A DNA stretch of 60,083 nucleotides, counting the filler, from Nitrospinae bacterium RIFCSPLOWO2_12_FULL_45_22 (GTDB lineage: Bacteria; 2-12-FULL-45-22), in NCBI GenBank assembly GCA_001803565.1. It is 2 parts of 2 records of this genome, joined end to end, with 100 filler letters (N's around TTAATTAATTAA, not from the genome) between each part and the next. Parts side by side here need not be neighbours in the genome. Positions count along the whole stretch, not along the records: positions 1 to 28,334 come from MHDQ01000127.1; 1 more part is not named here. One strand, given 5' to 3'. The notes under the pieces are model-generated. The model was not told the origin of the DNA. It saw nothing but the letters and a program-made list of their open reading frames with translations, and searched no databases. The number at the start of each line of letters is the position of its first letter. The first letter of the stretch is position 1. The translations under genes and the position numbers were made by a program. Below, in pieces: positions 2,076 to 28,434 of this stretch.

Positions 2076-3089
2076 TTAAAATATCTTGGTAATCTCGTCT
2101 CTTTCAAATATGGGCAGGGGAGATGCCCCATCTCTATGCCGCAAGAGAATCTCGCCTCTCTTGGCGGTAATCCGACCAATACTAGCAGCCGGGATATTTT
2201 CCCGGGCAAGGGCAGTCAGGACTAATTCCGCTCCTGGTGGGGGTAAAGTTATGAGCAGTGCCCCGGAAGATATGGTACCTAATGGGTCCAGAGAATATTC
2301 TTTACATAATGCGGCCGATTCAGGGAAGATAGGGATATTATCTGCTTCAATCATTATTCCTACCCGGGCAGCCTGGGCCAGCTCGTGCAAAGCCGTGGCT
2401 AATCCTCCTTCAGTCGGGTCATGCATAGAGGTTACCCGGCCTGCCTGGCAGGCAGTAAGGGCATCTTTTACTACGCTGATCCCTGGGTGGAATAAAAAAT
2501 CCCGGGCCTTTTTTATTTCCTCTGGCGTATAGCCCCGTTGGCGTAAATCATCGGCCTTGGTGCGGGCAATGATAGATGTCCCCTCAATACATATCCCCTT
2601 GGTCAGGATAATAATATCTCCGGGCTTAGCCCCAGCCGTCGTCACCAGGGAGTCTTTGGCTACTTCACCTAGCATATGGCCGGAGATGATAGGCCGGTCT
2701 AAGCCATAAGTAATTTCCGTATGACCACCAACTAAAGCAATATTGAGGGCTTGACAGGCCATAGCTATCTGTCTGAATATCCCCTCTAGCATCTCTTCGG
2801 ACACCCCCTGGTCAGGCAGGAGCAGGGTTGCTAGAAACCACCTGGGGATTGCCCCACAGGTAGCAATATCATTGGCATTGACATTCACGGCATAATACCC
2901 TAAATCCTCAGTTACAAAGGTTATAGGATCAGATTTGACTACCAGATACCGGTCGCCCATATCAATCACTGCGGCATCTTCACCTACCTTTGCCCCTACT
3001 ACTATCCGGGGATCAACCCCGGCATACCGCTCCAGTAGGTTGGCTAAGAGCCCCATTGGTATCTTGCCTACATCAAATTTATGACCCAT
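2076..3089 (-). CDS. AIR synthase-related protein (PurM/HypE/ThiL superfamily)
   Basis: Motifs GEDAAV, KSDPIT, NVNANDIA, GGHTE, MHDPTEGGL. Start placed at MGHKFDVGK; the ORF track extends to 3152. Confidence 0.85.
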   Translation of the reverse strand: MGHKFDVGKIPMGLLANLLERYAGVDPRIVVGAKVGEDAAVIDMGDRYLVVKSDPITFVTEDLGYYAVNVNANDIATCGAIPRWFLATLLLPDQGVSEEMLEGIFRQIAMACQALNIALVGGHTEITYGLDRPIISGHMLGEVAKDSLVTTAGAKPGDIIILTKGICIEGTSIIARTKADDLRQRGYTPEEIKKARDFLFHPGISVVKDALTACQAGRVTSMHDPTEGGLATALHELAQAARVGIMIEADNIPIFPESAALCKEYSLDPLGTISSGALLITLPPPGAELVLTALARENIPAASIGRITAKRGEILLRHRDGASPLPIFERDEITKIF

Positions 3090-3316
3090 TCTACCCATCC
3101 TGTTGAGGTATTTCAATAATTCCATTCTATAGATTGGTAGGTTTTTTTTCAAGGGATAAACTGGGAAAGGAGGATAGGCTACTTTTTAGCAGGATTTATA
3201 TCTATTAAAAGGGGGGGTAATTATTTGCTGTTATTCTGACAAAAAATAGCCGTCCCGAAGAAAAAGTAACCTCTCCCCCTTTTTGTTGGTGGGGAAAGAG
3301 GGAGGGAGCTAGTTAG

Positions 3317-4555
3317 TTACTTAGTGCTTGATTCTGCCAGGAGGTTTTTTTCATCTCCAGCTAATTGCACTCTAATTTCCTCTTTTTTAATGACGCAAGG
3401 TTCATATAGATAAAATATATTAGCATTGGTGCTAACTTCTTCCTTAAGGGATATAGGGAAGAGAAATTCCTCCCTGCGGACCTCCTTGGGCGCTATCCGG
3501 TTATCTTTAATGATTTTGCTGCCTTTAATCAAGATATCACTCTCCTCGGATAATATATTCCTATCTTTGTCTATCACAATCTTTTCATATACCCGGCTGC
3601 TACTAAAGGCTTGATTATTGCCGGTTTTAACCTCTACCAAAAGGGCTAACTTTCGATTAGGCATGCCTGTAGGGATTTTATGGCCGGCACCATGGTTTTC
3701 TATTTCTACCACCATCGTCATTTCTTCTGGTTTCCTTACAATATCCTTAATATTAACTCTTACCGCCTCTTTCAGCATATCTAAAGTATTAACCCCTACA
3801 CAGCACAGAAGGGCTTCTTGTTTTTTTCCTTTTATAAGCTGAGGGTCTTCAAAAGCCAGGGTCCCCTTTCTCTGGGGTATATGGCAATAATGGCATTGTT
3901 TGCCATCAGCGGCATAGGGACTCTCTGTCCATTCAGAAAAGGTGCTCAGAATAGCCAACCCATGCTCGTTTTTATGCTCATGACAACCGGCACAAAAATA
4001 GGAGGTATTGAAGAGGAAGGCATATTGGGTCTCATGGGCAGGCGAGCGAGCATCTTTCAAGGGACCCCATTTGGTCAATCCTAGCTTGATCTCAAAGGGA
4101 TTCTCCTTATTAGTTAGATTCACGTCTTTGACGCTATGGCAAAAATCGCAGGTTACACCCTCTTTGGTGATTTCCTGTTTTAGATCATAATCATTATTAA
4201 TTAATACAGCCGGGGCATGGCACTTCAAGCAATTATATTTTGCTGCACCAGCAGTATTCTTATATACCTCCGCATAAGCCCCATTAAAGACAGGATCTTC
4301 TAAGGACTTAGCATGCATGGATTCTTTCCAGGTGTTATAAATGGATTGATGGCATTTGCCACAGATTTGACTACTGGTAAGAGAATCCTTCTGTAATTTA
4401 GGGATGTGTTGGGCAGTTGTTTTTTTAGTTTTGAGGTCTACGCTCTTTGTTTGGCCATGCTGGGCCTTTAGATTACGCCCCATCAAGATAAATAGAAGAG
4501 TAAGAGCAACTGCTAAGGCCCCCCCCCTATGGATCCAAAAAGGATTATTTTTCAT
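3317..4555 (-). CDS. Periplasmic pentaheme c-type cytochrome (cytochrome c554-like family)
   Basis: N-terminal hydrophobic signal; five CXXCH motifs (CGKCH, CLKCH, CDFCH, CAGCH, CHYCH); conserved GAGHKIPTG; RBS AGGAGG upstream. Confidence 0.88.
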   Translation of the reverse strand: MKNNPFWIHRGGALAVALTLLFILMGRNLKAQHGQTKSVDLKTKKTTAQHIPKLQKDSLTSSQICGKCHQSIYNTWKESMHAKSLEDPVFNGAYAEVYKNTAGAAKYNCLKCHAPAVLINNDYDLKQEITKEGVTCDFCHSVKDVNLTNKENPFEIKLGLTKWGPLKDARSPAHETQYAFLFNTSYFCAGCHEHKNEHGLAILSTFSEWTESPYAADGKQCHYCHIPQRKGTLAFEDPQLIKGKKQEALLCCVGVNTLDMLKEAVRVNIKDIVRKPEEMTMVVEIENHGAGHKIPTGMPNRKLALLVEVKTGNNQAFSSSRVYEKIVIDKDRNILSEESDILIKGSKIIKDNRIAPKEVRREEFLFPISLKEEVSTNANIFYLYEPCVIKKEEIRVQLAGDEKNLLAESSTK

Positions 4556-4683
4556 GGTGTATCCCTCCTCCTATGCTTTGGTCTCCACCTCAAAAAGACC
4601 TGAAGACCAAGATATCCTCTCCCCCATCCTTTTTCCGGGTAGAGTAGACTTTTTATTTGAATCTCTTCCGGTGAGGGGATAAT

Positions 4684-5640
4684 TTATGGTTGGTTTTTGA
4701 TAGTCACTATATCCCCGTCAGTCTTAAATTTTTGTATCGAGAGGAGATAGGCAGTTATATTGCCCATTTCCCTTTCAGAAAGCTTGACCGGGACAAGACC
4801 GCTATTTTTCATCTCTTGCTCCATTTCTGGAAAATGGTTCCACATTAAGCCTGCCACCTGTCCAACTGTCCGGGGAACGCCCTTATTAATCTGGCTGATG
4901 ATAGTAAACTCCGGCCCGGTATTTCCTCCTTTCCCACGGATAGAATGGCATCTTAGGCAAGTATTTTGCCTTATTACCTTTTCCCCTTCTTTTTGATCTC
5001 CAAGGGTAAGATAAACCTTTTCTTTCGGTGGGCTAAGTTTTTGGATATATGCCAGTAAATCGACTAAATCACCACCATTAAACTGTGGCCAGGGAATATT
5101 TGTCCTCTTCATCTCTTTTTTCATCTCCGGGGCATGGTTCCACATCCGGGCAATCCAGGAGACCGGGTTAGCGAACTTAGCCTTTGGTCTCAAATCAGGA
5201 GCAATCTTGTTATGGCACGAATTACAACTCTTCTCGGCTAAGACCTTTTCTCCTTTATCTGGATTACCCGGCCCATCCAAAGTCTGGATAAATTTGAGGA
5301 AAGAGACTAGAGCGGGAACCTCTCCCGGAGAAATCCTAATGGATAAGAGTTTATTATTACCCATCTTTATCCCTTCTTGTATGGCATGCTTCCCGTATTC
5401 AGTTGCCAGCTCTCCAAAAGGGAATCCGCTCAGATTGCTCTCTCCTTTTCCCCCCATATCCCAGATAGGGTGGCAATTTATGCACCCTTTTTCGTAAAAG
5501 ATTTTCCAACCCCGCTTAGGTTCCTCCAGAGTATAGGCATTACCCTCAGACAAAAGGAGTAAAGAGGGGCAAAATATCGATACAATAAGGAGTGAAAAGG
5601 CGATAAATCTTATTCTCTTAAGCTTCTTATCCACTTTCAT
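4684..5640 (-). CDS. Triheme class I c-type cytochrome with MWNHxPEM repeats
   Basis: Signal/TM segment; CINCH, CNSCH and CLRCH each in a cytochrome c domain; RMWNHAPEM and LMWNHFPEM. Start at MKVDKK after AGGAGG. Confidence 0.85.
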   Translation of the reverse strand: MKVDKKLKRIRFIAFSLLIVSIFCPSLLLLSEGNAYTLEEPKRGWKIFYEKGCINCHPIWDMGGKGESNLSGFPFGELATEYGKHAIQEGIKMGNNKLLSIRISPGEVPALVSFLKFIQTLDGPGNPDKGEKVLAEKSCNSCHNKIAPDLRPKAKFANPVSWIARMWNHAPEMKKEMKRTNIPWPQFNGGDLVDLLAYIQKLSPPKEKVYLTLGDQKEGEKVIRQNTCLRCHSIRGKGGNTGPEFTIISQINKGVPRTVGQVAGLMWNHFPEMEQEMKNSGLVPVKLSEREMGNITAYLLSIQKFKTDGDIVTIKNQP

Positions 5641-5660
5641 ATCACCTCCTTTTAAATTTG

Positions 5661-5829
5661 TTGGTATTGTCAAAACTTCACCACAGAGTACACAGAGAAA
5701 TCATTAAATATCAACCTGCCTGTGCCACGGCAGACAGGTAAGTTGTGAGGATTTTGATTTCCTCCCCTCTGTGCTCTCTGTGGCTTTATATTGTTCCCTC
5801 TCTTTTCATAAAACTTTTGACATTACCAA
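5661..5829. repeat. Nested palindromic REP/MITE-like element (three concentric inverted repeats)
   Basis: Outer IR ttggtattgtcaaaa 5661-5675 / ttttgacattaccaa 5815-5829; middle IR ccacagagtacacagag 5681-5697 / ctctgtgctctctgtgg 5767-5783; inner hairpin acctgcctg-tgccacgg-cagacaggt 5714-5739. Confidence 0.75.
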
Positions 5830-5910: not shown

Positions 5911-6879
5911 TTAGTCTATGGCTAGTTCTTTAGCTTTTTTGAATTCCTCAGCCATGGCTGTCAACCCTGCGGCTGTGCCTAGATTCATACTATCAATCGC
6001 TGTTGATGGCACCAGCACTATAGTAGAGTTCCCTTTAAGCCCCTCAAACAGCATATTCATGGCCCTTAAATGCAGGGCAGTAGGGTTATTCACATAGACA
6101 CGGGATGCATCCTCGAAGCTCTTGGCTATCTGTCGTTCTGAATCACCCAGGATTACCCGGGCCTGACGCTCTCTTTCAGCCTGTGCTTGCATAGACATAG
6201 CATCTTGCAGCGCTAGCGGGATAATTACATCCCTTATTTCCACGGCCTCAATCTCGATCCCCCAGGGGATAACCCGGTCATGGATAAGTTTTTTGAGATC
6301 CGTGTCTAGTTGTTCCCTCCCCACTAGCATCTCTGAAAGATCATATTTGCCAATAATGTCTCGCAAGCCTGTCTGGGCTGCCCAACTCACCGCCATCGAA
6401 TAATCCTCTACCTCAAGAGCCGCCTTCATGGGGTCAGTCACCTTCCAGAAAAGTACGGCATCCACATCCACTGGCACATTATCGCGGGTCAAGGTCTCCT
6501 CTGCCCGGAAGATAGTGGTTATCACTCGAAGGTCAATCCAATACGGGATAGAGTCGATTATAGGTATAATAGTAAAGAACCCTGGTCCCTTGGTGCGATG
6601 ATATTTACCAAGCCGCAGGATGATGGCCCTTTCCCATTGATCTGCTATCTTGATCATGCTGGCAGCAATGACGGCTAATATGAGAATCATTATGCCGGGC
6701 AAGATATTTAAGGTGGCAATGGATAGCAAGATGCCTACCAGGAATATTATGCTGGCGATAAGGAAAGATAAGGGATTAAGACCAAATTTTTTCCTTGCCC
6801 GTTTGAGCAGTATCTGTTCCATTAAGGCCCTCTCCCTCTGATCTCCCCGTGCTCCTTCATTGGAAGATATATTAGCCAT
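5911..6879 (-). CDS. SPFH/band 7 (slipin/stomatin-like) membrane protein
   Basis: Two N-terminal TM segments; QWERAIILRLG, TLTRDNVPVDVDAV, AQTGLRDIIG, QAQAERERQA. Confidence 0.92.
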   Translation of the reverse strand: MANISSNEGARGDQRERALMEQILLKRARKKFGLNPLSFLIASIIFLVGILLSIATLNILPGIMILILAVIAASMIKIADQWERAIILRLGKYHRTKGPGFFTIIPIIDSIPYWIDLRVITTIFRAEETLTRDNVPVDVDAVLFWKVTDPMKAALEVEDYSMAVSWAAQTGLRDIIGKYDLSEMLVGREQLDTDLKKLIHDRVIPWGIEIEAVEIRDVIIPLALQDAMSMQAQAERERQARVILGDSERQIAKSFEDASRVYVNNPTALHLRAMNMLFEGLKGNSTIVLVPSTAIDSMNLGTAAGLTAMAEEFKKAKELAID

Positions 6880-8149
6880 ATTCGCTCCCTCCTTCTAAAA
6901 AGTGAAATGATTTATCCTTGGTATTTGTTGCCCAGGGTGGACCTAATCCAGGGATTAGCTTTCGCCCGCGGCACCGTTCACATAGCTGAAGCAATGATAA
7001 TAATAAATCTCTTTCTCCTTCCTGCCCAAGCTTATGAAGGACATAGGCCTGACCGGGTAGAGGTATGATACCTCCACACTCCTGACACCTCCTAAGGGGA
7101 CTCCTCACCAATATCTCCTTGGTGGGCTCCCGGTTATCTCCGGGAGATCCTTTTCTAAGCACCTGCAACGCCTTTTCCGGACAATTTTCAATGCAGACAA
7201 AACATCCAGAGCACCTTGCCGGATAAAAGTTAAGCTGAACTTCCTCTTCCAATAAGGATATCTCTAATGCACCATCCAGGCACTGCAGGGAGCAAATCCC
7301 ACAAAAGGAGCAATCTTCTTTTTTAATATGTAACCAAATTGTCCTCTCCTTACCTGTATGCTCCTGTTTAAGGGGCGGGCACAGAATCCCACCACCATGC
7401 CTTAACGGCATTTTTCCATCCATACCAGGAATTTGGTGGCCTTTTGTTTGGTTGTCTGGAGAGACCTTTTTTTCGCCCAATGCTCCTTCTCCTAATAAAC
7501 TTTTCAAATAGCGCAGATCAGCCTTGATCCATCTTAGAAGGAGCCTTGCCAGAGAGGGATAAAGCGGTTCTGCCGCGTGCTCTTGCAAAGAATCAACAAA
7601 AGAGGGTAGCCACCATAGAATATGGCGGGAGAGAAACTGATATTGTTTTTCCCACCACTTTTCTGGTAAGTCGGCAAAAACTTCCTGCTCACAGAGAAAA
7701 CTCATAAACTCTAACTCGAGGATTAGGTGATCCGGCAAATCGTAGAAAGTTTCAGCTATCTCCAGGCCCTCTCTCCTATAGAGCTTGAGGGCATCTATAG
7801 CGGGCTGAGCCATAACCGACTGGCCTCGGGGATGGATATATGCAGATGCATATGGAGGTATTAAGGGCCTACCGGGGCCATAAAAGAGACGATTATAGGC
7901 TACCTCTAAAGCCAATAGGCCGTGCTCTTTATATCCTTTCTTGAAAGGGCAGAGAATATCTGTGACCTCTTGCAAAATTGATTGGATTTCAACGGGTGGG
8001 GGTTGATCTTCCGAACTACCTGACCAATCTTTACACCATCTGGTAATCTGCTGCAGAAACTCCTCGAGATAGGAATCTCCTTCTGGGCGCGAGAAAGCCC
8101 GGGCCATTAGGACATAACCTCTTTGTCGGATTTCAGCTAATAAGGCCAT
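6872..8149 (-). CDS. TorD/DmsD-family molybdoenzyme chaperone fused to a 4Fe-4S dicluster ferredoxin
   Basis: N-terminal YNRLF, PPYASAY and LPDHLILELEFM (TorD/DmsD motifs). C-terminal CSFCGICSLQC, CSGCFVCIENCP, plus CQEC...CERC. Confidence 0.85.
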   Translation of the reverse strand: MALLAEIRQRGYVLMARAFSRPEGDSYLEEFLQQITRWCKDWSGSSEDQPPPVEIQSILQEVTDILCPFKKGYKEHGLLALEVAYNRLFYGPGRPLIPPYASAYIHPRGQSVMAQPAIDALKLYRREGLEIAETFYDLPDHLILELEFMSFLCEQEVFADLPEKWWEKQYQFLSRHILWWLPSFVDSLQEHAAEPLYPSLARLLLRWIKADLRYLKSLLGEGALGEKKVSPDNQTKGHQIPGMDGKMPLRHGGGILCPPLKQEHTGKERTIWLHIKKEDCSFCGICSLQCLDGALEISLLEEEVQLNFYPARCSGCFVCIENCPEKALQVLRKGSPGDNREPTKEILVRSPLRRCQECGGIIPLPGQAYVLHKLGQEGERDLLLSLLQLCERCRGRKLIPGLGPPWATNTKDKSFHFLEGGSEYG

Positions 8150-9690
8150 CGGTATCTCCTTGCTGATTCACGCTTGGGAAGGATACAGATTTGTAGAGGC
8201 AAGCTCCATAAGGTAATAATACCTAATACCCAGATAGCCGGTGCGGGTGGCGTTTCCCGAGTAATGATCCCAGTAGCTATAAGTCCTACCCCGGCTAGTA
8301 GAGTTAAAGGGATAGTAAAACGTTTTATTAATCCTAAGATGTTTTTTATCCTCTCATAAGGAGAGACATAGTAAGGTAATATTACCGGGCTATGCGTAGC
8401 TACGCGGACTTCTTCGGGCAGCTCTAAGACCGGCAATACTTTAACCAGAACGGTATAAAGGAAGGCACAGAAGATAAAGCTCCCGGCGATCAGACTCCAA
8501 TCGAAAAAAGTAGGCATATATGGGGCGATTTTATAAGGCAGGTGGGGGTGATAGAAAGAGGGTACTACAATAAGATAGCGCCAGATCCACATGGATATAA
8601 AGACCGGGATAGCTGCAAGAACTGTCAGCTTTATGCTGCATATCCGGGGATTGGCGCCCTGGATAAAAAATATCCAAAAAGGTACGACCATTCCCAGGAT
8701 AGTAGCTGGCCAGGTGATCTTGGCAAATCGGCCAAAAAGCACATCATTAAACACTACCCTTTCGGCTGCCGGTGGGGCATAGGTCCCGGTTAGCCACTCA
8801 CTGAATAGAAAATAGAGATATAGCCAGGTGACAAAACCTAGAAATACCCCCAGGCCTTTGAATATCCGCGGATAAAATATCTCTTGCCAGCCAAAGGTCT
8901 GCCGCAGGATAGCCAGGACTATAATGACAAAAGAGAAGCCTGTAACTATTGCCCCTAAGACAAAATAGGGGGCCTGGAAGGGATTAAACCATCCGGGCCT
9001 CCCGGCTTGCATCCCAAAGATATACCCATAGACTGAATGGACTGATACCATTATGGGAAGGATTATGACAGCCAGCCACCAGACCACCCGCTCATGGGTC
9101 TGACGGCTCTGGGGGGTGTCCGAATACCCCAGGGCCAGTAGTTTATATAGCCAGCGCTTATGAGAAGGCAATACCAGGGAGCAGATATATAAATCACGGC
9201 GCATAGCCAGGTATAAGTAAACACTACTACCAATAAGATATGTAGTGATGACAGTCATGGACCAGACAAAGGGGGCATGAAAGCGGCCATGCTTAACCAC
9301 ATTAAAGATAAAGCGATCTGGCCGGCCTACATCCATAGATATATTCAATACTGCTGTGGTTAAGGAAGCAAGGGTAACCAGCTCTGCTATGCGGGCTAAC
9401 TGCTTATATCGCTCTAAGTTTAATATGCGTACTACCGCAGAAATAGCGATCCCGACGTGGCTGATGCCAATAAAATGGACAATATCAGCCACCAGTATCC
9501 CCCAGATAGCACCCTGGGAGCCCTGGCCAGTAAAGTGATGCCCCTCAAAAAATTGGAGCTGAAAATTATAGAAAAGCCAGATTACCCCGGCCAGGAGCAA
9601 TCCAAAAAAGGGATAAAACATCCAACTGGTATAAATTAAGGGACGCAACAATAGTTCTAATTCTCTGTCTTCTATATATCCTCGCGCCAT
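8137..9690 (-). CDS. nrfD: NrfD/PsrC-family integral membrane quinone-interacting subunit (ActC/QrcD-like)
   Basis: About 10-12 hydrophobic helices; IGISHVG, RIAE, DVGRP, VSVHSV, PGW...PYFVLGAI. Confidence 0.9.
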   Translation of the reverse strand: MARGYIEDRELELLLRPLIYTSWMFYPFFGLLLAGVIWLFYNFQLQFFEGHHFTGQGSQGAIWGILVADIVHFIGISHVGIAISAVVRILNLERYKQLARIAELVTLASLTTAVLNISMDVGRPDRFIFNVVKHGRFHAPFVWSMTVITTYLIGSSVYLYLAMRRDLYICSLVLPSHKRWLYKLLALGYSDTPQSRQTHERVVWWLAVIILPIMVSVHSVYGYIFGMQAGRPGWFNPFQAPYFVLGAIVTGFSFVIIVLAILRQTFGWQEIFYPRIFKGLGVFLGFVTWLYLYFLFSEWLTGTYAPPAAERVVFNDVLFGRFAKITWPATILGMVVPFWIFFIQGANPRICSIKLTVLAAIPVFISMWIWRYLIVVPSFYHPHLPYKIAPYMPTFFDWSLIAGSFIFCAFLYTVLVKVLPVLELPEEVRVATHSPVILPYYVSPYERIKNILGLIKRFTIPLTLLAGVGLIATGIITRETPPAPAIWVLGIITLWSLPLQICILPKRESARRYRWPY

Positions 9691-10373
9691 TCCCCTTCTC
9701 CTAAATAGATAACCTTGGGATGAGTGCCTAGCTCTTCCAAGAGCCGGAAGGCCCGGCGGCTCCGGGCTAGCTTTGACACCATACTTTCTGGATCATCCAG
9801 GTCGCCAAAATAACGGGCCTTGGCTGGACAAGTCTGTACACAAGCAGTAACATATTCCCCCTCCCGGATAGGCCGGTCTTCTGACCGGGCCTTCTCCCGG
9901 GCCTTCTGCCAGCGATGGACACAAAAGGTACATTTTTCTACCACACCTAAGGGTCTGAGCGATACATCAGGGTTAAAAGCACTCTGCATTATTTCTGGCC
10001 AATGGCCCTTGCTCCAATTATAGAATCTCCTGCTATAGGGACAGGCACACATACAAAGCCGGCAGCCAATACAGCGGGCAAAGATCTGAAAAACTATCCC
10101 CTCTTCACTCTTATAGGTGGCCCTTACCGGGCAGACTTTTATACAGGAAGGCCGATCACAATGCATACAGGGAAGTGGGGTAAAACGTATGCGAGAATAT
10201 CCCTGCTCCCCTTCTTCCTTGAAGGGTAGTACCTGATTCCAGAAGATGGCTCTACCTTTAGAGGCATGATCGGGACCAGCAAAGGGGATATTATTCTCAT
10301 TCCGGCAAGCAATCGTACAGGCCTGACAAGCCGTACATCTATCCAGGTCTATCACCATACCCCACCTTGGCAT
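9672..10373 (-). CDS. 4Fe-4S electron-transfer subunit (QrcC/DsrO/PsrB-like)
   Basis: MPRWGMVIDLDRCTACQACTIAC, CMHCDRPSCIKVCP, CIGCRLCMCACP, VVEKCTFC...CVQTCP. Confidence 0.93.
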   Translation of the reverse strand: MPRWGMVIDLDRCTACQACTIACRNENNIPFAGPDHASKGRAIFWNQVLPFKEEGEQGYSRIRFTPLPCMHCDRPSCIKVCPVRATYKSEEGIVFQIFARCIGCRLCMCACPYSRRFYNWSKGHWPEIMQSAFNPDVSLRPLGVVEKCTFCVHRWQKAREKARSEDRPIREGEYVTACVQTCPAKARYFGDLDDPESMVSKLARSRRAFRLLEELGTHPKVIYLGEGEWREDI

Positions 10374-10391: not shown

Positions 10392-12842
10392 TTAAACTTT
10401 TACTAAACGTACCCGGGTAGAGCCCCAGGAAACATTACCCGTAAGATAATTAAATTCCGTCCCTATAATTTTATTCAGGTTTTCTCCCCTATTTCTTGCC
10501 CAGCGGCCATAAGAGCTATGGCCATATTCGAAGGGGACATTTAGGACATGCCGCTGAGCCCCTTCAAAGATCAGGGCTTTAAATTGGACCCGGCCAATAG
10601 GCGACTCTACCCATACCCGCTCTTCATCCTCTATTCCCAGAATGTGAGCATCTTCAGGGTGGATCTCCAGCCAGGGTTCCCAGCTCTTGCTATGCTGGAG
10701 GCCAAAGATTTCTTGCAGGTGGGGCTGATTGCCTCCTCTACCTTCGGCATGGGGCATAACCTTATAGGTATTGATCAAAAAAGGATATTCTTTTTCATCC
10801 CCTATGAACCGCAGGGGCTCATAATGGGGCATAAAAACCTCATCTCCCTGGCCGGATAACTGCAACTTTTCTATTAATTGCTCAAAGGCCTTTTCATGGG
10901 TTAATCCTTCTCTATCTGCGATCCTTTGTACTAGTTCATCTATCTTTAATTTCATGAGCAAAGAATAAAATTCAAACTTCCTTGAGGGGGTCCTTATAAC
11001 TTCCTGCCATTGAGCAAACGAATATGGTGGTGCCCACCAACCCCCATTATCTAAGAGGGCAGCCCAGAACTTTTGGGGTTCTTTTTCTTGGATAGAACCC
11101 CTTCCAGCGGTCCTTATTCCTTCTAAGGCATCTCTAACCATATCCAGATAATTATCTAAAAAGGCCGCCCCCACCGTTCCTCCAATGGCCTTAGCAATAG
11201 CGATCATTACATCCCCTGTATGCCTGGTATTATATAAAGGCTTAACCACAGGCTGCCTGATACCTAATAGAGGGTAGCCTGTACTCGAAGGGATCTCATC
11301 ATCTTCCCACCGCTCTAGATAAGTATGGTCCGGTAGGATTAGATCAGCCATATGGGTAGATTCATCCAAAAAGGGAGAAAAACTTACTATAAAAGGAATC
11401 TTAGTAAACGCCTCATAATATCTACTTATTTGTGGGCTAGAGAAGAGGGGATTAGTATAATATAAAAAAAGAGTATCTAATTTGTAGGGGTACCCTGCCA
11501 GGATATTATTGGGCAAGGTGGCATAGGCACTGGATGCAAAAGGAAATGTTTCTGAGCCGGCTAAGTCTATTCGAGGTTGTTTCAATCCCTTTATCGCTCC
11601 TGCATCCAAAGTCGGCTCCCACCACTCTTTGAAGGGTGGTCTTCTTTGAATCATTACCCCGCCCGGTATATCTAGAGAACCTATGAGGGCATTAAGAGAA
11701 TGGACAGCCATACAGGTATATAGCCCGTTGGATTGGCCACTAATCCCCCGGCCATATATAGCAATACCAGGTCTATGGCTGGCAAATTCCTGAGCAGTCC
11801 GTTCAATTACCTTCGTGGGGACACCGGTAATAAGGGAGACCTTTTCGGGGGGGTATTGTTCTATTACCAAATGTTTGAAGCCTACATGCTCCTTGCCAGA
11901 ATCATCCCGCCAGTCATCGAAGCCAAAGGTATAGTTTTTTACAAAAGTATGATCATAGAGATTGTCTCGGATAATGACATGGGCCAATCCTAAAGCCAGA
12001 GCCCCATCGGTACCTGGTTTTACTCCTATCCATTTATCGGCTTTGGATGCCGATATGGAATAACGGATATCTATTTGGACTAATTTAGCGCGGATTCCTG
12101 GCCGACCTCGATGCATTTGACCATACATGCGTAACCGGTAGGCAGCGGGCACTCCTGCCTCGAGTAAACTGGTGCCAAAACAGAGTATATAATTGGTATT
12201 TTCCCAATCATAGGCAAAATAGTCCTTAGCGCCTTGCATAAAATAGTGAGCTGACATGGCCCCTTCCATCCCCAGATCATGACTAATATTGTTAGGAGAC
12301 CCATAGACCTTAAGGAAGCGGTCCATGAGCGGACCCATATGGCCCCGGTAGTGACCCCCAATGACTGCTACTCTATGGCTTTCCCCCTTACTTCGGAGTT
12401 TAGCAAGTCGAGTCCCCAATTCTTTAATGGCCTGTTCCCAGGAAATGCTTTGCCATTTCCCTTCCCCTCGCTCACCAACCCGCTTCATTGGACCCCTGAT
12501 CCTGTCAGGGTCATAGAGCACCTGGAGCCCATTTTGGCCTTTGGGACAGAGCCCCCCCAGATTGGTGGGATATATAGGATTCCCTTCAATCTTTACTGCC
12601 CGGCCTTCAACTACCCTCACCTGAATGCCACACCCACCCGGGCATTGTAGACAGATACTTTTATAGTAACGCTCCTCCCCTAGCGACCATTCATCTGCCC
12701 CGGGCACTGGTGGTTTATCAATTTCATATTCTTCCGGCCATCCTTCCTCCAGGAGTTCTTCTATTCGACAGCTAGTCATGCTTCCAGCTAATAGGGCAGC
12801 ACTAGCCGATTTTAGGAAGGTTCGACGGGTAACTTTTGACAT
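10392..12842 (-). CDS. DMSO-reductase-family molybdopterin oxidoreductase subunit (ArrA/PsrA/QrcB-like), Tat-exported lipoprotein
   Basis: TRRTFLK twin-Arg motif and lipobox-like MTSC; FS0 motif CLQCPGGC...LCPKG; YDPDRI, GSPNNISH, PGTDGALALG, ADLILPDHTYLER; C-terminal molydop-binding domain. Confidence 0.92.
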   Translation of the reverse strand: MSKVTRRTFLKSASAALLAGSMTSCRIEELLEEGWPEEYEIDKPPVPGADEWSLGEERYYKSICLQCPGGCGIQVRVVEGRAVKIEGNPIYPTNLGGLCPKGQNGLQVLYDPDRIRGPMKRVGERGEGKWQSISWEQAIKELGTRLAKLRSKGESHRVAVIGGHYRGHMGPLMDRFLKVYGSPNNISHDLGMEGAMSAHYFMQGAKDYFAYDWENTNYILCFGTSLLEAGVPAAYRLRMYGQMHRGRPGIRAKLVQIDIRYSISASKADKWIGVKPGTDGALALGLAHVIIRDNLYDHTFVKNYTFGFDDWRDDSGKEHVGFKHLVIEQYPPEKVSLITGVPTKVIERTAQEFASHRPGIAIYGRGISGQSNGLYTCMAVHSLNALIGSLDIPGGVMIQRRPPFKEWWEPTLDAGAIKGLKQPRIDLAGSETFPFASSAYATLPNNILAGYPYKLDTLFLYYTNPLFSSPQISRYYEAFTKIPFIVSFSPFLDESTHMADLILPDHTYLERWEDDEIPSSTGYPLLGIRQPVVKPLYNTRHTGDVMIAIAKAIGGTVGAAFLDNYLDMVRDALEGIRTAGRGSIQEKEPQKFWAALLDNGGWWAPPYSFAQWQEVIRTPSRKFEFYSLLMKLKIDELVQRIADREGLTHEKAFEQLIEKLQLSGQGDEVFMPHYEPLRFIGDEKEYPFLINTYKVMPHAEGRGGNQPHLQEIFGLQHSKSWEPWLEIHPEDAHILGIEDEERVWVESPIGRVQFKALIFEGAQRHVLNVPFEYGHSSYGRWARNRGENLNKIIGTEFNYLTGNVSWGSTRVRLVKV

Positions 12843-12973: not shown

Positions 12974-13501
12974 CTACCTGTGGCATGCAGAACAATCATT
13001 AGATACCTTCCTCTGCTCGTGGCAGTCCATACAGGTGTCCATATTCAAAGTAGCCATGATGGGCTTGTCCAAAGGTAGTTCCTTTTCTCCGATATCCCCA
13101 TGGCAGGTTTTACAAGCTATCTTGCCTATTGCCGCATGCCGTTTATGGGAGAAATAGACATGACGAGGCAACTTGTATAGCCTTATCCAGGGTATTTGGC
13201 CTCCATTGGATGAATATTTCTCCAGAATATCAAAGGGTGGCGCGGTATTCCCCTCGTGACACTCCAGGCAAATTTCTAATCTGGGTATACCGGGATCAGT
13301 CCTAGTAAAGACAAACAGATGGCAATTCTCACATTCTAATCCGCTTTCGTTATGGATCTTATGGTTGAAGGGAAAAGGTTGTTTTAAAGAGTTAGAATTA
13401 AACGGATTGATTTTTTGGACATTGGCTTGGGCCAAAATAGATAAAAATACTATTCCCCCAATAACAGTGAAAAAAAGCCCCAAGAATAAAATCTTCTTCA
13501 T
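12974..13501 (-). CDS. Membrane-anchored pentaheme cytochrome c3-family protein (QrcA/ActA-like)
   Basis: N-terminal TM; QPFPFNHKIH; CENCH, CLECH, CKTCH, CMDCH, CSACH; IPWIRLYKLP.HVYFSHKRH. Confidence 0.92.
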   Translation of the reverse strand: MKKILFLGLFFTVIGGIVFLSILAQANVQKINPFNSNSLKQPFPFNHKIHNESGLECENCHLFVFTRTDPGIPRLEICLECHEGNTAPPFDILEKYSSNGGQIPWIRLYKLPRHVYFSHKRHAAIGKIACKTCHGDIGEKELPLDKPIMATLNMDTCMDCHEQRKVSNDCSACHR

Positions 13502-13514
13502 AACCCCTCCTTTC

Positions 13515-13877
13515 TTAAGTACATGAGATCTTTTGGTTTAGCCGGTCCAGATTTAAGGGTTCCTCAAAACAATCGAAAAAATCGATCTTATTGTCCTCTA
13601 TTCCATCATCATTGAACTCCTTTCCTAGTAGTAGAATGATATGGATATTAGGATTAATCTTCTTTATTATGGGAGCTATATCATAACCGGTTAAGCCCGG
13701 TAGCTGTCCCTTTAGAATGGCGGCATCGATCCTTTCCCTAATACTAAGAGAGAGGGCTTCTTTGCTGCTCTCTGCCTGGATCACTTCGTGACCTTTGGCA
13801 GAAAAAAAATGGGCAATTTGTTCTCTCTCTTCCTTATTGTCATCTGCTATAAGGAGCCTTTTTCTTTTATCTATCAT
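13515..13877 (-). CDS. Stand-alone atypical receiver-domain protein
   Basis: CheY-like LLIADD...; phospho-acceptor position reads AAILKGQLPG instead of xxxLDxxLP. Start at MIDK after GAGG; the ORF track extends to 13925. Confidence 0.75.
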   Translation of the reverse strand: MIDKRKRLLIADDNKEEREQIAHFFSAKGHEVIQAESSKEALSLSIRERIDAAILKGQLPGLTGYDIAPIIKKINPNIHIILLLGKEFNDDGIEDNKIDFFDCFEEPLNLDRLNQKISCT

Positions 13878-14099
13878 AGCCAAACCTCTGGGCTCCAAGG
13901 ATTTATTTGATGGGCAAACCTTCATACCCTAACGGACACCACGAGGCATAAATAACTTGAACTGTAGCGTGAAAGTCTGCTTTCATAAATGCCAGCAAGC
14001 TGGTGCGCTACCTTATTTGTTAATGGAACCAAAATGCTATTTTCAGGACAAACAAATAAAGGTTTATGAAGGATTCTAAAACCAACTGAATAGAGACTG

Positions 14100-14115
14100 A
14101 GCAAATAGCGTGCCT
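14100..14115 (-). promoter_or_regulatory. Sigma54 (-24/-12) promoter of the respiratory operon
   Basis: Minus strand AGGCACGCTATTTGCT fits TGGCACG-N4-TTGCW with exact GG-N10-GC spacing; adjacent to an NtrC-family gene. Confidence 0.8.
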
Positions 14116-14130
14116 TTACCGATTTCAAGC

Positions 14131-14171
14131 AAAAAAAAAGCCACCTAATTCTTACTTAGGTGGCTTTTTTT
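14131..14171. terminator. Rho-independent (bidirectional) terminator
   Basis: A-run + gccacctaa-ttcttac-ttaggtggc + T-run, downstream of the NtrC-family gene. Confidence 0.8.
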
Positions 14172-14187
14172 GTATATGGGGTTATAT

Positions 14188-14261
14188 AACACCGAGACCC
14201 AGAGCCGAGTAAGAAAAGAATTTTTAATTTATTTCTCTAAGTCTCCCGTGCCCCGGTGGTT
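14188..14261. repeat. Degenerate CACAGAG-type inverted repeat pair
   Basis: aacaccgagacccagag ... ctcccgtgccccggtggtt; resembles the middle IR at 5681-5783. Confidence 0.4.
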
Positions 14262-14282
14262 AATTTTAATCACCTCTTCAGG

Positions 14283-14380
14283 ATCGCAATTTGAAATACC
14301 CCCTATCCCTAAGTCTAGATACCATAAAGGTTTTTAAGCCGCTATCCCAAATTTCAACACATCATTGCATTTTGCAATAC
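14283..14380. promoter_or_regulatory. Candidate upstream activator sequences for the sigma54 activator
   Basis: Related 17-mers atcgcaatttgaaatac (14283), atcccaaatttcaacac (14344) and attgcattttgcaatac (14364, palindromic TTGCA-N3-TGCAA), 170-265 bp upstream of the -24 element. Confidence 0.5.
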
Positions 14381-15765
14381 TAATCCCTCTTCTCAAGCCT
14401 TCGCCAGATAGTACTGGTACTAATTCCTAGAATCTCTGAGGCCTTCCTTCTATTCCATTTAGTGGCTTGCAGGACTTCCAAAATATAGTTCCTTTCCACT
14501 CTCTCCAGGGAGGGAAAGGATTCTAGCTGAGTACTATTTTTGGCCGTTCTTTTTTGCGAAATACTATTTTCTCGTCCTCTCTCCAGCAATTGGTTAAAAC
14601 TTTCAGGTTCGATCGAATCGCCTTCTGCCAATATAACTGCCCTCTCGACAACATTTTCTAGTTCCCGGACATTGCCAGGCCAGCTATAGTTAAGTAAAAG
14701 TGTCATAGCCTCTTCACTAAAACCCTGGATCTTCTTTTTAACTTCATTATTGTATTTTTTCAAGAAATGGTTAGCCAACAAAGGGATATCCTCTTTTCTT
14801 CCTCGGAGAGGTGGGAGAAAAACAGGAACCACATTTAACCGATAATAAAGTTCTTCCCGAAACTCACCTTTCTTTATAGCCTCTTTCAAGTCTTTATTGG
14901 TAGCGGCAATAATACGAACATCCACCGAGATACTTTTTTCGCTCCCCACTGGTTTTATTTCTCTCTCCTGTAAGGCCCGTAACAACTTAACCTGGAGATC
15001 CAAACTCATATATCCTATTTCATCCAGAAAAAGGGTACTCCCATGAGCCAGCTCAAAACTGCCTTTCCGGCTCCTCATAGCCCCAGTAAAGGCCCCTTTT
15101 TCATGACCGAACAGGTCACTTTCTAATAACTCTGCTGGGATAGCCGCGCAATTAACCGTAATCATGGGTTTATGGGAACGGTGACTCCTCTTATGGACAT
15201 CTTCGGCAACTAACTCTTTCCCGGTCCCAGTTTCTCCGAGAATCATTACGGTCGAGTTGGTCTTAGCTATTTTATTGATTAATCTATCAACCTCCCTCAT
15301 CTCCTGGCTCTCTCCCAGTAAGACCCGTTCTTCCTTATTTATCCTTAATCTTTCTCTTAAATCCCTATTCTCTATCACCAATCTCTGCTTTTCTAGGGCT
15401 TTCTTTACCAGCATTCTCAATTCTTCGGGAGTAAAGGGTTTGGGAAGATAGTCGTAGGCTCCCTCCCTCATTGATCTAACAGCGGTTTCTATGGTAGCAT
15501 AGCCAGTTATCATAATAACCTCTATCTGGGGATTGATTTTCTTTATTCTTTGCAATAATTCAATTCCATCCATCCCCGGCATCTTTATATCAGCCAATAC
15601 TACCTGATAATCTTTAGCCCCTATATTTTCTAGGGCTTCTTGGGCCCGGTTAGCAGTATCAATACTGTACCCTTCTTTAGTTAGGGCTTGGGTACAGGCA
15701 TCCAGGGTATCCTCTTCGTCATCTACTATTAATATCCATATGCCAGTTTGAGACTGTCTCTCCAT
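14380..15765 (-). CDS. Sigma54-dependent NtrC/AtoC-family response regulator
   Basis: Receiver ILIVDDE...LADIKMPG; AAA+ GETGTGKE, ESDLFGHEKGAFTGA, WPGNVRELEN; Fis-type HTH. Confidence 0.95.
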   Translation of the reverse strand: MERQSQTGIWILIVDDEEDTLDACTQALTKEGYSIDTANRAQEALENIGAKDYQVVLADIKMPGMDGIELLQRIKKINPQIEVIMITGYATIETAVRSMREGAYDYLPKPFTPEELRMLVKKALEKQRLVIENRDLRERLRINKEERVLLGESQEMREVDRLINKIAKTNSTVMILGETGTGKELVAEDVHKRSHRSHKPMITVNCAAIPAELLESDLFGHEKGAFTGAMRSRKGSFELAHGSTLFLDEIGYMSLDLQVKLLRALQEREIKPVGSEKSISVDVRIIAATNKDLKEAIKKGEFREELYYRLNVVPVFLPPLRGRKEDIPLLANHFLKKYNNEVKKKIQGFSEEAMTLLLNYSWPGNVRELENVVERAVILAEGDSIEPESFNQLLERGRENSISQKRTAKNSTQLESFPSLERVERNYILEVLQATKWNRRKASEILGISTSTIWRRLEKRD

Positions 15766-15956
15766 CCTATATCCCTTCTCCAATTATCCTGAATCCAGAG
15801 CGAATGCTCTTTATGCTAAGAAAATAGTGGATCTTTTTTAGCATTTTGTAGTAGATGCTGGATGAACTCTAGGATTTGGTGAGCTTCCTCGCCGCTCAAT
15901 AATTTGATCATCTTATGTAGTGATTCTTTAACCGAACTCATAATCGATACCTCTAA

Positions 15957-28334: not shown

Positions 28335-28434
28335 NNNNNNNNNNNNNNNNNNNNNNNNNNNNNNNNNNNNNNNNNNNNTTAATTAATTAANNNNNNNNNN
28401 NNNNNNNNNNNNNNNNNNNNNNNNNNNNNNNNNN
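28335..28434. other. Artificial contig linker
   Basis: 44 N + TTAATTAATTAA (stops in all six frames) + 44 N. Confidence 0.97.

Follow-up and report, generated by a model that had tools for sequence, protein, structure and literature searches.

A Mo/W-bisPGD-type large subunit without the canonical cysteine ligand in an operon resembling those of alternative complex III and Qrc

The stretch of DNA considered here (the window, 60,083 nucleotides) comes from Nitrospinae bacterium RIFCSPLOWO2_12_FULL_45_22 (GCA_001803565.1). On its minus strand, genes are found in the order sigma-54 activator, receiver, pentahaem cytochrome, large subunit, iron-sulfur (FeS) protein, NrfD-family membrane protein, TorD-ferredoxin fusion, SPFH protein and two cytochromes c. 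The large subunit, our main subject, is encoded by an open reading frame (ORF) of 816 aa (10392..12842; this and all genes and motifs below that carry coordinates on the first contig are on the minus strand). It is an ArrA/PsrA-like protein of the molybdenum/tungsten-bis(pyranopterin guanine dinucleotide) (Mo/W-bisPGD) type that lacks the Cys ligand of the metal. The preliminary description of this DNA had pointed to the missing Cys; the surrounding operon, which resembles those of alternative complex III (ACIII) and Qrc, and a family-conserved Arg replaced by His at position 164 are features beyond it.

By its fold, the large subunit belongs to the Mo/W-bisPGD (dimethyl sulfoxide reductase, or MopB) superfamily. 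It exceeds the Pfam cut-offs for PF04879 (54.6 bits), PF00384 (137.1 bits) and PF01568 (50.7 bits), and passes none of the NCBIfam equivalog models, scoring 355.2 on ArrA (NF041714; cut-off 1600), 320.4 on PhsA (NF012032; cut-off 694) and 301 on QrcB (cut-off 440). An AlphaFold2 model built on 146 homologues has a mean predicted local distance difference test score of 95.1. Its best fold match by VIA is ArrA 6CZ7 (Z 48.4, root-mean-square deviation 2.1 Å over 734 residues, 30% identity), followed by PsrA (Z 37.6), with the ActB chains of ACIII at 30.8-33.6 and AioA at about 31.5; the Foldseek ranking agrees with this order at the top. A sequence search of the PDB likewise places ArrA 6CZ7 first (315 bits, E 6e-93) and PsrA second (205 bits), while the best ActB chains reach only 54-60 bits. 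The ArrA-like scaffold first proposed for the protein is thus well borne out.

The N terminus carries a twin-arginine signal (TRRTFLK) followed by Cys25 in a possible lipobox (LAGSMTSC; 12768..12842, with Cys25 at 12768-12770). Cys25 is common to three close relatives (P0001, P0002 and P0003) as well. The protein may be exported by the twin-arginine translocation (Tat) pathway, possibly as a lipoprotein. C64, C67, C71 and C99 form the CX2CX3CX27C motif of the FS0 cluster (12540..12653), which is invariant in 64 family sequences together with P100-K101. True QrcB has L or M in place of K101, two positions after the fourth Cys, and an ActB-like protein has L; from its position K101 would correspond to Lys44 of FdhH, described as conserved and near both cofactor and cluster (PMC12176258). 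Residues 160-167 read VIGGHYRG, in which GGHYRG (12342..12359) is the family motif GGRYRG with Arg164 changed to His, as judged by HMMER alignment and family conservation. The KPGTDGA motif contains D279 (12000..12020; GTDGAL is residues 277-282), and HAEGRGGN, with E700 and R702, spans residues 698-705 (10728..10751); all three residues, D279, E700 and R702, belong to the 14 discriminating columns defined below. HAEGRGGN is eroded in QrcB and in a paralogue from the same genome (C290). All strings earlier quoted as retained, namely the FS0 cysteines, GTDGAL and HAEGRGGN, are found in the ORF.

The ligand loop, H188-D189-L190-G191-M192-E193-G194 (12261..12281), reads GSPNNISHDLGMEG where relatives have HSSICADG, and is one residue shorter. 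Residues 180-199 read YGSPNNISHDLGMEGAMSAH, and the codons cat gat ctg ggg atg gaa at 12281-12264 specify H188, D189, L190, G191, M192 and E193. Three alignments (HMMER against ArrA 6CZ7, MAFFT with 256 homologues and MAFFT L-INS-i with 167 family members) agree on a one-residue deletion and on Gly191 under the canonical Cys. The absence of the Cys is thereby confirmed, and the register of the preliminary description, with Met or thereabouts under the Cys, proves slightly off. With Gly191 in place, the ligand column offers no Cys, selenocysteine, Ser or Asp side chain. In the AlphaFold2 model a strand (residues 184-187) leads into the loop (188-192) and a helix starts at Glu193, so that Gly191 sits two residues ahead of the helix, like the family Cys. 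As the ligand Cys is gone, the loop is shorter and Gly fills the column, most probably no side chain ligates the metal at this position.

Other cysteines do not appear to compensate. Selenocysteine was ruled out, since the codons, read directly, form an open frame over all 816 positions with no in-frame TGA, as first described. The segment that had been called free of Cys (residues 155-221) has none in the ligand loop but does hold one, C221, on its last codon (12180-12182), 30 residues past the loop; 45 of 77 Cys-bearing relatives have it too, and it is therefore no substitute ligand. C377 at first seemed clade-specific, yet was found in eight of the same 77, and the family alignment contains no clade-specific Cys column.

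That the missing Cys reflects a sequencing or assembly error, or a pseudogene, is extremely improbable. The source is a fragmented metagenome bin (321 contigs, 85% complete), in which such faults might be expected, but the frame stays open over 816 codons, the core columns described below are kept to 96-97%, and the same shortened loop occurs in P0001 (99% identity; on another contig, with 19 member sequences in its cluster) and in P0002 (79% identity), which excludes an assembly artefact. In P0003 (72% identity) the loop is of normal length with Ser in the Cys column, so the short loop looks like a deletion of that very residue.

Some other side chain might bind the metal: Asp189, brought nearer by the short loop in a NarG-like manner, or Met192, or in P0003 the Ser. 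Asp189 is present in all four members of the clade formed by the large subunit and its closest relatives, and Gly and Asp alternate in the ligand column of a related clade. The residue after the loop His also takes the position of ArrA Ser190, which we take to face the substrate pocket. Ser, as found in the Cys column of P0003, is given as a known ligand in this enzyme superfamily (PMC10100899). However, Asp189 lies two columns ahead of the ligand column, and position 189 is Glu or Asp in the Cys-bearing sister clade too (HESLC/HDSLC). The acidic residue thus coexists with Cys there and predates the loss, rather than being a replacement that arose with it. Met192 is Ile in one of the three relatives (P0002), which speaks against it as ligand. 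Of the Asp or Met coordination suggested earlier, the Met is thus not supported, and neither is the Asp as a specific replacement, although it is conserved in the close homologues. We consider a side-chain ligand of this kind quite unlikely.

Whether the rest of the cofactor site has decayed was assessed on core columns derived from Cys-bearing family members and 15 distant Cys-bearing representatives, three of them ArrA-like (one, P0227, scores 824 bits on the ArrA model). The reference for decay was a QrcB clade of seven proteins, three passing the QrcB model and four tree neighbours. Own-clade proteins keep 96-97% of the 120 core columns, and match the family consensus at 63-65% identity in the 449 columns outside the core; ArrA-like proteins keep 92-94% at only 38-42% identity elsewhere, and the QrcB clade 66-75% at 36-45%.

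Core columns kept by at most one of the seven QrcB-clade proteins were termed discriminating, which gives 15 columns with the Cys and 14 without: K101, D111, D113, the Cys, P232, D279, N372, G373, Y607, K694, E700, R702, E726, G779 and A782. The large subunit and each of P0001-P0003 keep all 14, ArrA-like representatives 12-14 and the QrcB clade 0-1. A fused ActB-like protein whose best PDB matches are ActB (P0262) keeps six, and the own-genome paralogues C290 and C182 keep seven each. Other distant representatives without Cys keep 0-11 of 15, and every Cys-less family clade tabulated keeps 12-14 of 15 (Cys column counted), including a 48-member Gly clade. On the stem branch of the own clade, about 0.33 substitutions per site long, none of the 14 columns has changed. 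E726, G779 and A782 fall inside the Pfam dinucleotide-binding domain match (residues 719-802), and the discriminating columns other than K101 presumably contact the cofactor. Erosion of the molybdopterin guanine dinucleotide-binding residues, which the preliminary description had named as the finding that would point to a mere scaffold, is thus not seen. Loss of a single residue while the rest of the cofactor cradle stays fixed, in several clades, fits continued binding of FS0 and a bis-pterin; the same columns are free to change in QrcB, so an empty QrcB-like shell fits poorly.

Among 199 columns conserved at 95% or more in the 77 Cys-bearing members, the large subunit departs at nine. Besides the lost Cys and the deleted Ser before it, these are Arg164 to His, Arg244 to His, Ala266 to Ser, Glu270 to Lys, Pro408 to Trp, Phe589 to Pro and one Pro that falls in a gap. 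Arg164 is among the columns conserved at this level and is kept in the other Cys-less clades checked. HMMER places residue 164 under the second Arg of RGRY in ArrA, to which we ascribe a role in binding arsenate or substrate. H164 and W408, which together with the HDLG loop make up the clade-wide changes, are fixed in all four clade members, which share 72-99% identity, and these changes cluster at what is predicted to be the pocket.

We give about an even chance to the reading that the large subunit bears the cofactor but has, like AioA and IdrA, no side chain ligating the metal at the usual position, and that it is part of a complex intermediate between ArrAB and ACIII. The other serious reading, which we hold to be rather unlikely, is a non-catalytic scaffold like QrcB or the B1 domain of ActB, in which the pterin is absent or functionless, the loss of Cys is early decay and the complex is a cytochrome c/quinone oxidoreductase. 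The retention of every column that QrcB has lost, over a stem of that length, speaks against a scaffold, as does the fixation of the new residues H164 and W408 across the clade. Family, operon and genome bear on the choice as well.

The large subunit falls in an uncharacterised family of homologues at about 50% identity, marked by YTNPLFS, LPDHTYLERW and HAEGRGAN and hosted, according to record titles, by Nitrospiria, Methylomirabilota/Rokubacteria, Anaerolineae, Thermodesulfobacteriota, Acidobacteria and others. The 167 non-identical sequences sampled comprise the window protein plus, from a length of 740 aa upwards, members of the top 120 matches and locus proteins that score more than 750 bits. 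Their ligand column holds Cys in 77, Gly in 66, Ser in 19, Leu in three, Thr in one and Arg in one. With 90 of 167 members lacking Cys, the protein is not the singular case it had been thought to be; Asp occupies the column at four further loci of the Gly clade (L067, L069, L070 and L079). Close relatives are few. A word-index search of 5.8 billion clusters gave only three above 57% identity among the matches listed, a metagenome scan returned nothing above 51% except the window's own contig and one 99% fragment, and a search of the own genome and 40 relatives found no match above 45% identity outside the own genome. The source lineage is phylogenetically isolated: among these 40 relatives a single one belongs to its order, and the others are related at the level of the domain only.

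With QrcB as root, a FastTree phylogeny places the own four-sequence clade as sister (support 0.998) to a 27-sequence HESLC clade that has Cys and cytochrome-associated loci. The enclosing cytochrome-associated clade of 40 sequences (support 0.93) contains four other Cys-less lineages, three of them basal and one nested in the Cys clade, which implies either that Cys was lost five times or that it was lost, regained and lost once more; internal supports in this clade are in part low (0.45, 0.70).

An Anaerolineae/Anaerolineales clade of this family (L024, L027, L028, L038 and L039) combines Ser in the ligand column (HDSLSVDG) with a TorD-ferredoxin gene and no cytochrome gene, and its proteins are possible Ser-ligated enzymes on an Arr/Psr-type scaffold. 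A 48-member NPARGSEG clade, hosted by record title mostly in Thermodesulfobacteriota, Syntrophaceae and Deltaproteobacteria metagenome-assembled genomes, toggles between Asp (L067, L069, L070, L079) and Gly (L036, L041, others) in the ligand column, and its loop conservation is 0.90 against 0.80 for the whole protein.

The partner subunits point towards ACIII. Directly upstream of the large subunit gene lies that of a membrane-anchored, ActA/QrcA-like pentahaem cytochrome c (12974..13501; 175 aa, five CxxCH, one N-terminal hydrophobic helix). In the PDB it matches ActA best, from four ACIII structures (E 9e-22 to 1e-17), and it scores 90.4 bits on the QrcA model (cut-off 180). The four-cluster FeS subunit (9672..10373; 233 aa, 16 Cys in four groups) matches best, in the PDB sequence search, the C-terminal B2 half of ActB (residues 797-1023; 205 bits), followed by PsrB (124) and ArrB (123), and scores 287.8 bits on the QrcC model (cut-off 400). 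The NrfD-family membrane subunit, recognised by Pfam (8137..9690; 517 aa, about 11-12 hydrophobic segments by a crude hydropathy count), matches only ActC of ACIII in the PDB at E<=0.01 (E 1e-24 to 6.5e-21); on NCBIfam it meets only the DsrP and HybB models and no QrcD family. No second NrfD-family ORF corresponding to ActF was found on the contig by Pfam. An operon order and three subunits like those of ACIII or Qrc speak for a scaffold. That none of the QrcA, QrcB and QrcC models reaches its cut-off, and that a QrcD family does not appear among the matches, tells against it.

The next gene encodes a TorD/NarJ chaperone domain fused to a 2x[4Fe-4S] ferredoxin domain (6872..8149; 425 aa; PF02613 at 97.6 bits plus Fer4 families), with a Cys-rich C-terminal tail. 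Several family loci are followed by longer genes of the TorD family (307-438 aa), which may be similar fusions; one was checked by Pfam (L004:8934-10154). Then come an SPFH/Band-7 protein (5911..6879; Pfam), which takes the same place after the NrfD gene in L003 and L005, and two more c-type cytochromes recognised by Pfam (3317..5673), one of 329 aa and class-I type and one multihaem of 412 aa. A downstream cytochrome scores 75 bits on the ExtKL model (cut-off 250). Judging by strand and spacing, these cytochrome genes probably belong to the operon, and additional cytochromes c would suit a cytochrome c/quinone oxidoreductase built on an empty scaffold. An AIR-synthase-family protein lies beyond them (2076-3152, minus strand; HypE 114, ThiL 104 and SelD 97 bits, all below cut-off).

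Upstream of the cytochrome gene, Pfam and NCBIfam identify a receiver-only response regulator and a sigma-54 (NtrC-type) activator (13515..15783), and the activator is also found upstream in the sister locus L005. A -24/-12-like site, AGGCACGCTATTTGC (one mismatch; 14101-14115, minus strand), is present in the 455-nt gap upstream of the receiver gene, adjoining the activator gene. The window contains 42 such matches where 39 are expected, and thus shows no enrichment. The window is made up of two contigs separated by an N spacer that carries a short linker (28335-28434); all of the above, with the large-subunit gene, is on the first (1-28334), and the second (28435-60083) holds an unrelated glycosyltransferase/polysaccharide-synthesis cluster.

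Retention of a TorD-type chaperone in the operon speaks against a scaffold, and its distribution was surveyed in 44 related loci with 12 or more of the 14 columns and a downstream flank of no less than 4.5 kb (loci below this length and copies of the own contig were left out; TorD was counted within 6 kb). Cys loci (n = 14) have TorD in seven cases and a cytochrome gene in two (a third, L003, is known from a separate analysis), and Ser loci (n = 6) have TorD in five and a cytochrome gene in none. Gly loci (n = 19) have no TorD gene and a cytochrome gene in 17 cases, a pattern that favours a scaffold. Both Asp loci and the single Arg locus have a cytochrome gene and no TorD. The window locus and the one Leu locus (L004, Nitrospiria) carry both.

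The genome itself, a 3.7-Mb bin, has 23 molybdopterin-domain matches in about 19 frames. Of its five PF02613 (TorD) genes, one is in the operon and the other four are on contigs with a molybdopterin-domain gene; none is on the 12.8-kb contig of the degenerate C290 paralogue cluster. A MobA-like gene scores 83 bits, below a cut-off that only one of 14 control genomes passes. Two further cytochrome/Mo-like/FeS/NrfD clusters are present in which the large subunits lack Cys and are clearly degenerate, with 7 of the 14 columns; that such clusters exist in the same genome again favours a scaffold. Related clusters are carried by contigs C290 (locus L087 = C290:4011-8666), C182 and C271, and one Psr-like cluster adjoins a 13-CxxCH cytochrome.

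Returning to a ligand-free but cofactor-bearing subunit, a working scheme can be outlined. The large subunit would be exported by Tat into a four-subunit periplasmic membrane complex with the pentahaem cytochrome, the four-cluster FeS protein and an ActC-like quinone-binding membrane protein. It would still hold FS0 and a Mo/W-bisPGD cofactor and have the TorD-type protein encoded in the operon as its chaperone, and the metal would most likely be completed by oxo, hydroxo or sulfido groups in place of a side chain. The pterin and quinone sites and the FeS and haem wires could then exchange electrons, in the manner of a branched ACIII wire with the enzyme end still alive.

Several observations weigh against this scheme. 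Of the four subunits, three resemble those of ACIII, which operates with no cofactor in B1; both ACIII and Qrc are reported to function with none in this subunit (PMC5928083, PMC13059093, PMC6303296). The four FS0 cysteines persist in QrcB-clade and ActB-like proteins, so retention of the motif is no proof of occupancy. The ligand column switches state three to five times within the 40-sequence cytochrome-associated clade, which fits relaxed selection on catalysis and the labile column expected of a scaffold. In the own clade (n = 3), conservation of the loop (residues 181-200) is 0.63 and thus below the 0.75 of the whole protein, again as a scaffold would have it, whereas the Cys-bearing HSSIC clade has 0.80 in the loop and 0.67 overall. 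A TorD gene is absent from the flanks of the Cys-keeping sister loci L003, L005 and L013, which leaves the chaperone argument with moderate weight only. In the scheme as a whole, sequence features with their conservation, fold and gene context are what is shown, while cofactor occupancy, the way in which the metal is coordinated, where the electrons flow and what the substrate is are inferred.

A wider proposal is more tentative, and we think it somewhat less than probable: these proteins may form a second, independent ligand-less Mo/W-bisPGD lineage, within the Arr/Psr branch and not the Aio/Idr branch, and their complexes may be living intermediates between ArrAB and ACIII in which the FeS2-4 wire still ends at a working FS0 and pterin. 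In that case the pterin cradle would be fixed and the ligand column, with Cys, Ser, Gly, Asp, Leu or a deletion, tunable. An otherwise intact ArrA-type protein without Cys would widen the known coordination chemistry of the superfamily and provide a concrete object for how catalytic Mo subunits became the cofactor-free B1 and QrcB modules of ACIII and Qrc. Survey pipelines that drop sequences without the expected ligand, as described in PMC10100899, would miss this family. The literature searched, which included few subscription papers, gave no account of this complex or of an Arr/Psr-type subunit that has lost the Cys but retained its cofactor residues, and no entry of the 2021 catalogue of NrfD complexes, as given in its Table 1, pairs a multihaem cytochrome subunit with a Mo-bisPGD subunit (PMC8076601).

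Compared with known systems, the large subunit is closest to ArrA of Shewanella sp. ANA-3 (6CZ7), with which it shares the Tat signal, FS0, GSPNNISH and the GTD and (H/N)xEGR..N columns. It differs in Gly191, which fills the Cys column, in GGHY, which aligns with RGRY of ArrA, and in Met196, which aligns with the Lys five residues after the ArrA Cys. The (R/K)GRY motif and the Cys ligand, which we take to be the marks of ArrA, are thus both absent. The partner subunits are ACIII-like, whereas Arr is listed without a cytochrome c subunit (PMC8076601, Table 1). The PsrA/PhsA system of Thermus thermophilus (2VPZ/2VPW) has the same three-part layout of Mo, FeS and NrfD subunits; in contrast, the large subunit here has no Cys ligand, a pentahaem cytochrome is added, and the membrane subunit gives no PsrC match at E<=0.01, only ActC.

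AioA and IdrA resemble the large subunit in the proposed mode of working, having no amino-acid ligand, and not in family. Within the superfamily they branch elsewhere (Z about 31.5, 15-17% identity), and AioA has a Rieske partner. They contain a [3Fe-4S] cluster (PMC10100899), in contrast to the four-Cys FS0 motif of the large subunit, and are the only Mo/W-bisPGD enzymes without an amino-acid metal ligand among those listed in Table 1 of PMC10100899 and in PMC5432002.

QrcABCD, the menaquinone reductase of sulfate reducers, has the same gene order (cytochrome, Mo-like, FeS, NrfD), a Tat signal and a missing Cys ligand. Unlike the large subunit, with all 14 discriminating columns, proteins that pass the QrcB model keep 0-1, and QrcB is reported to be without a redox cofactor (PMC13059093, PMC6303296).

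ACIII (6F0K, 6BTM, 6LOD, 8K9E) is the nearest parallel for the complex as a whole, as the cytochrome is similar to ActA, the FeS subunit to B2 of ActB and the membrane subunit to ActC, with the same periplasmic orientation. It differs in that ActB is a fusion, whereas the large and FeS subunits are encoded separately here, in that a TorD chaperone gene is present here, and in that decay of the B1 type is not seen, with 14 of 14 columns kept as opposed to 6 of 14 in the ActB-like P0262. Domain B1 of ActB is described as having no prosthetic groups, and the role of the FeS2-4 clusters as elusive (PMC5928083); ActB has been traced to an ArrAB-like ancestor that underwent fusion and cofactor loss (PMC10100899). 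Split ActB1 genes with a CX2CX3CX27C motif have been noted in iron oxidisers (PMC4643136). Parts of the ACIII type for A, B2 and C next to an unfused ArrA-type subunit that keeps its cofactor residues, and a sister clade with the same layout that retains the Cys, are, from sequence comparison, how an intermediate between ArrAB and ACIII would be expected to look.

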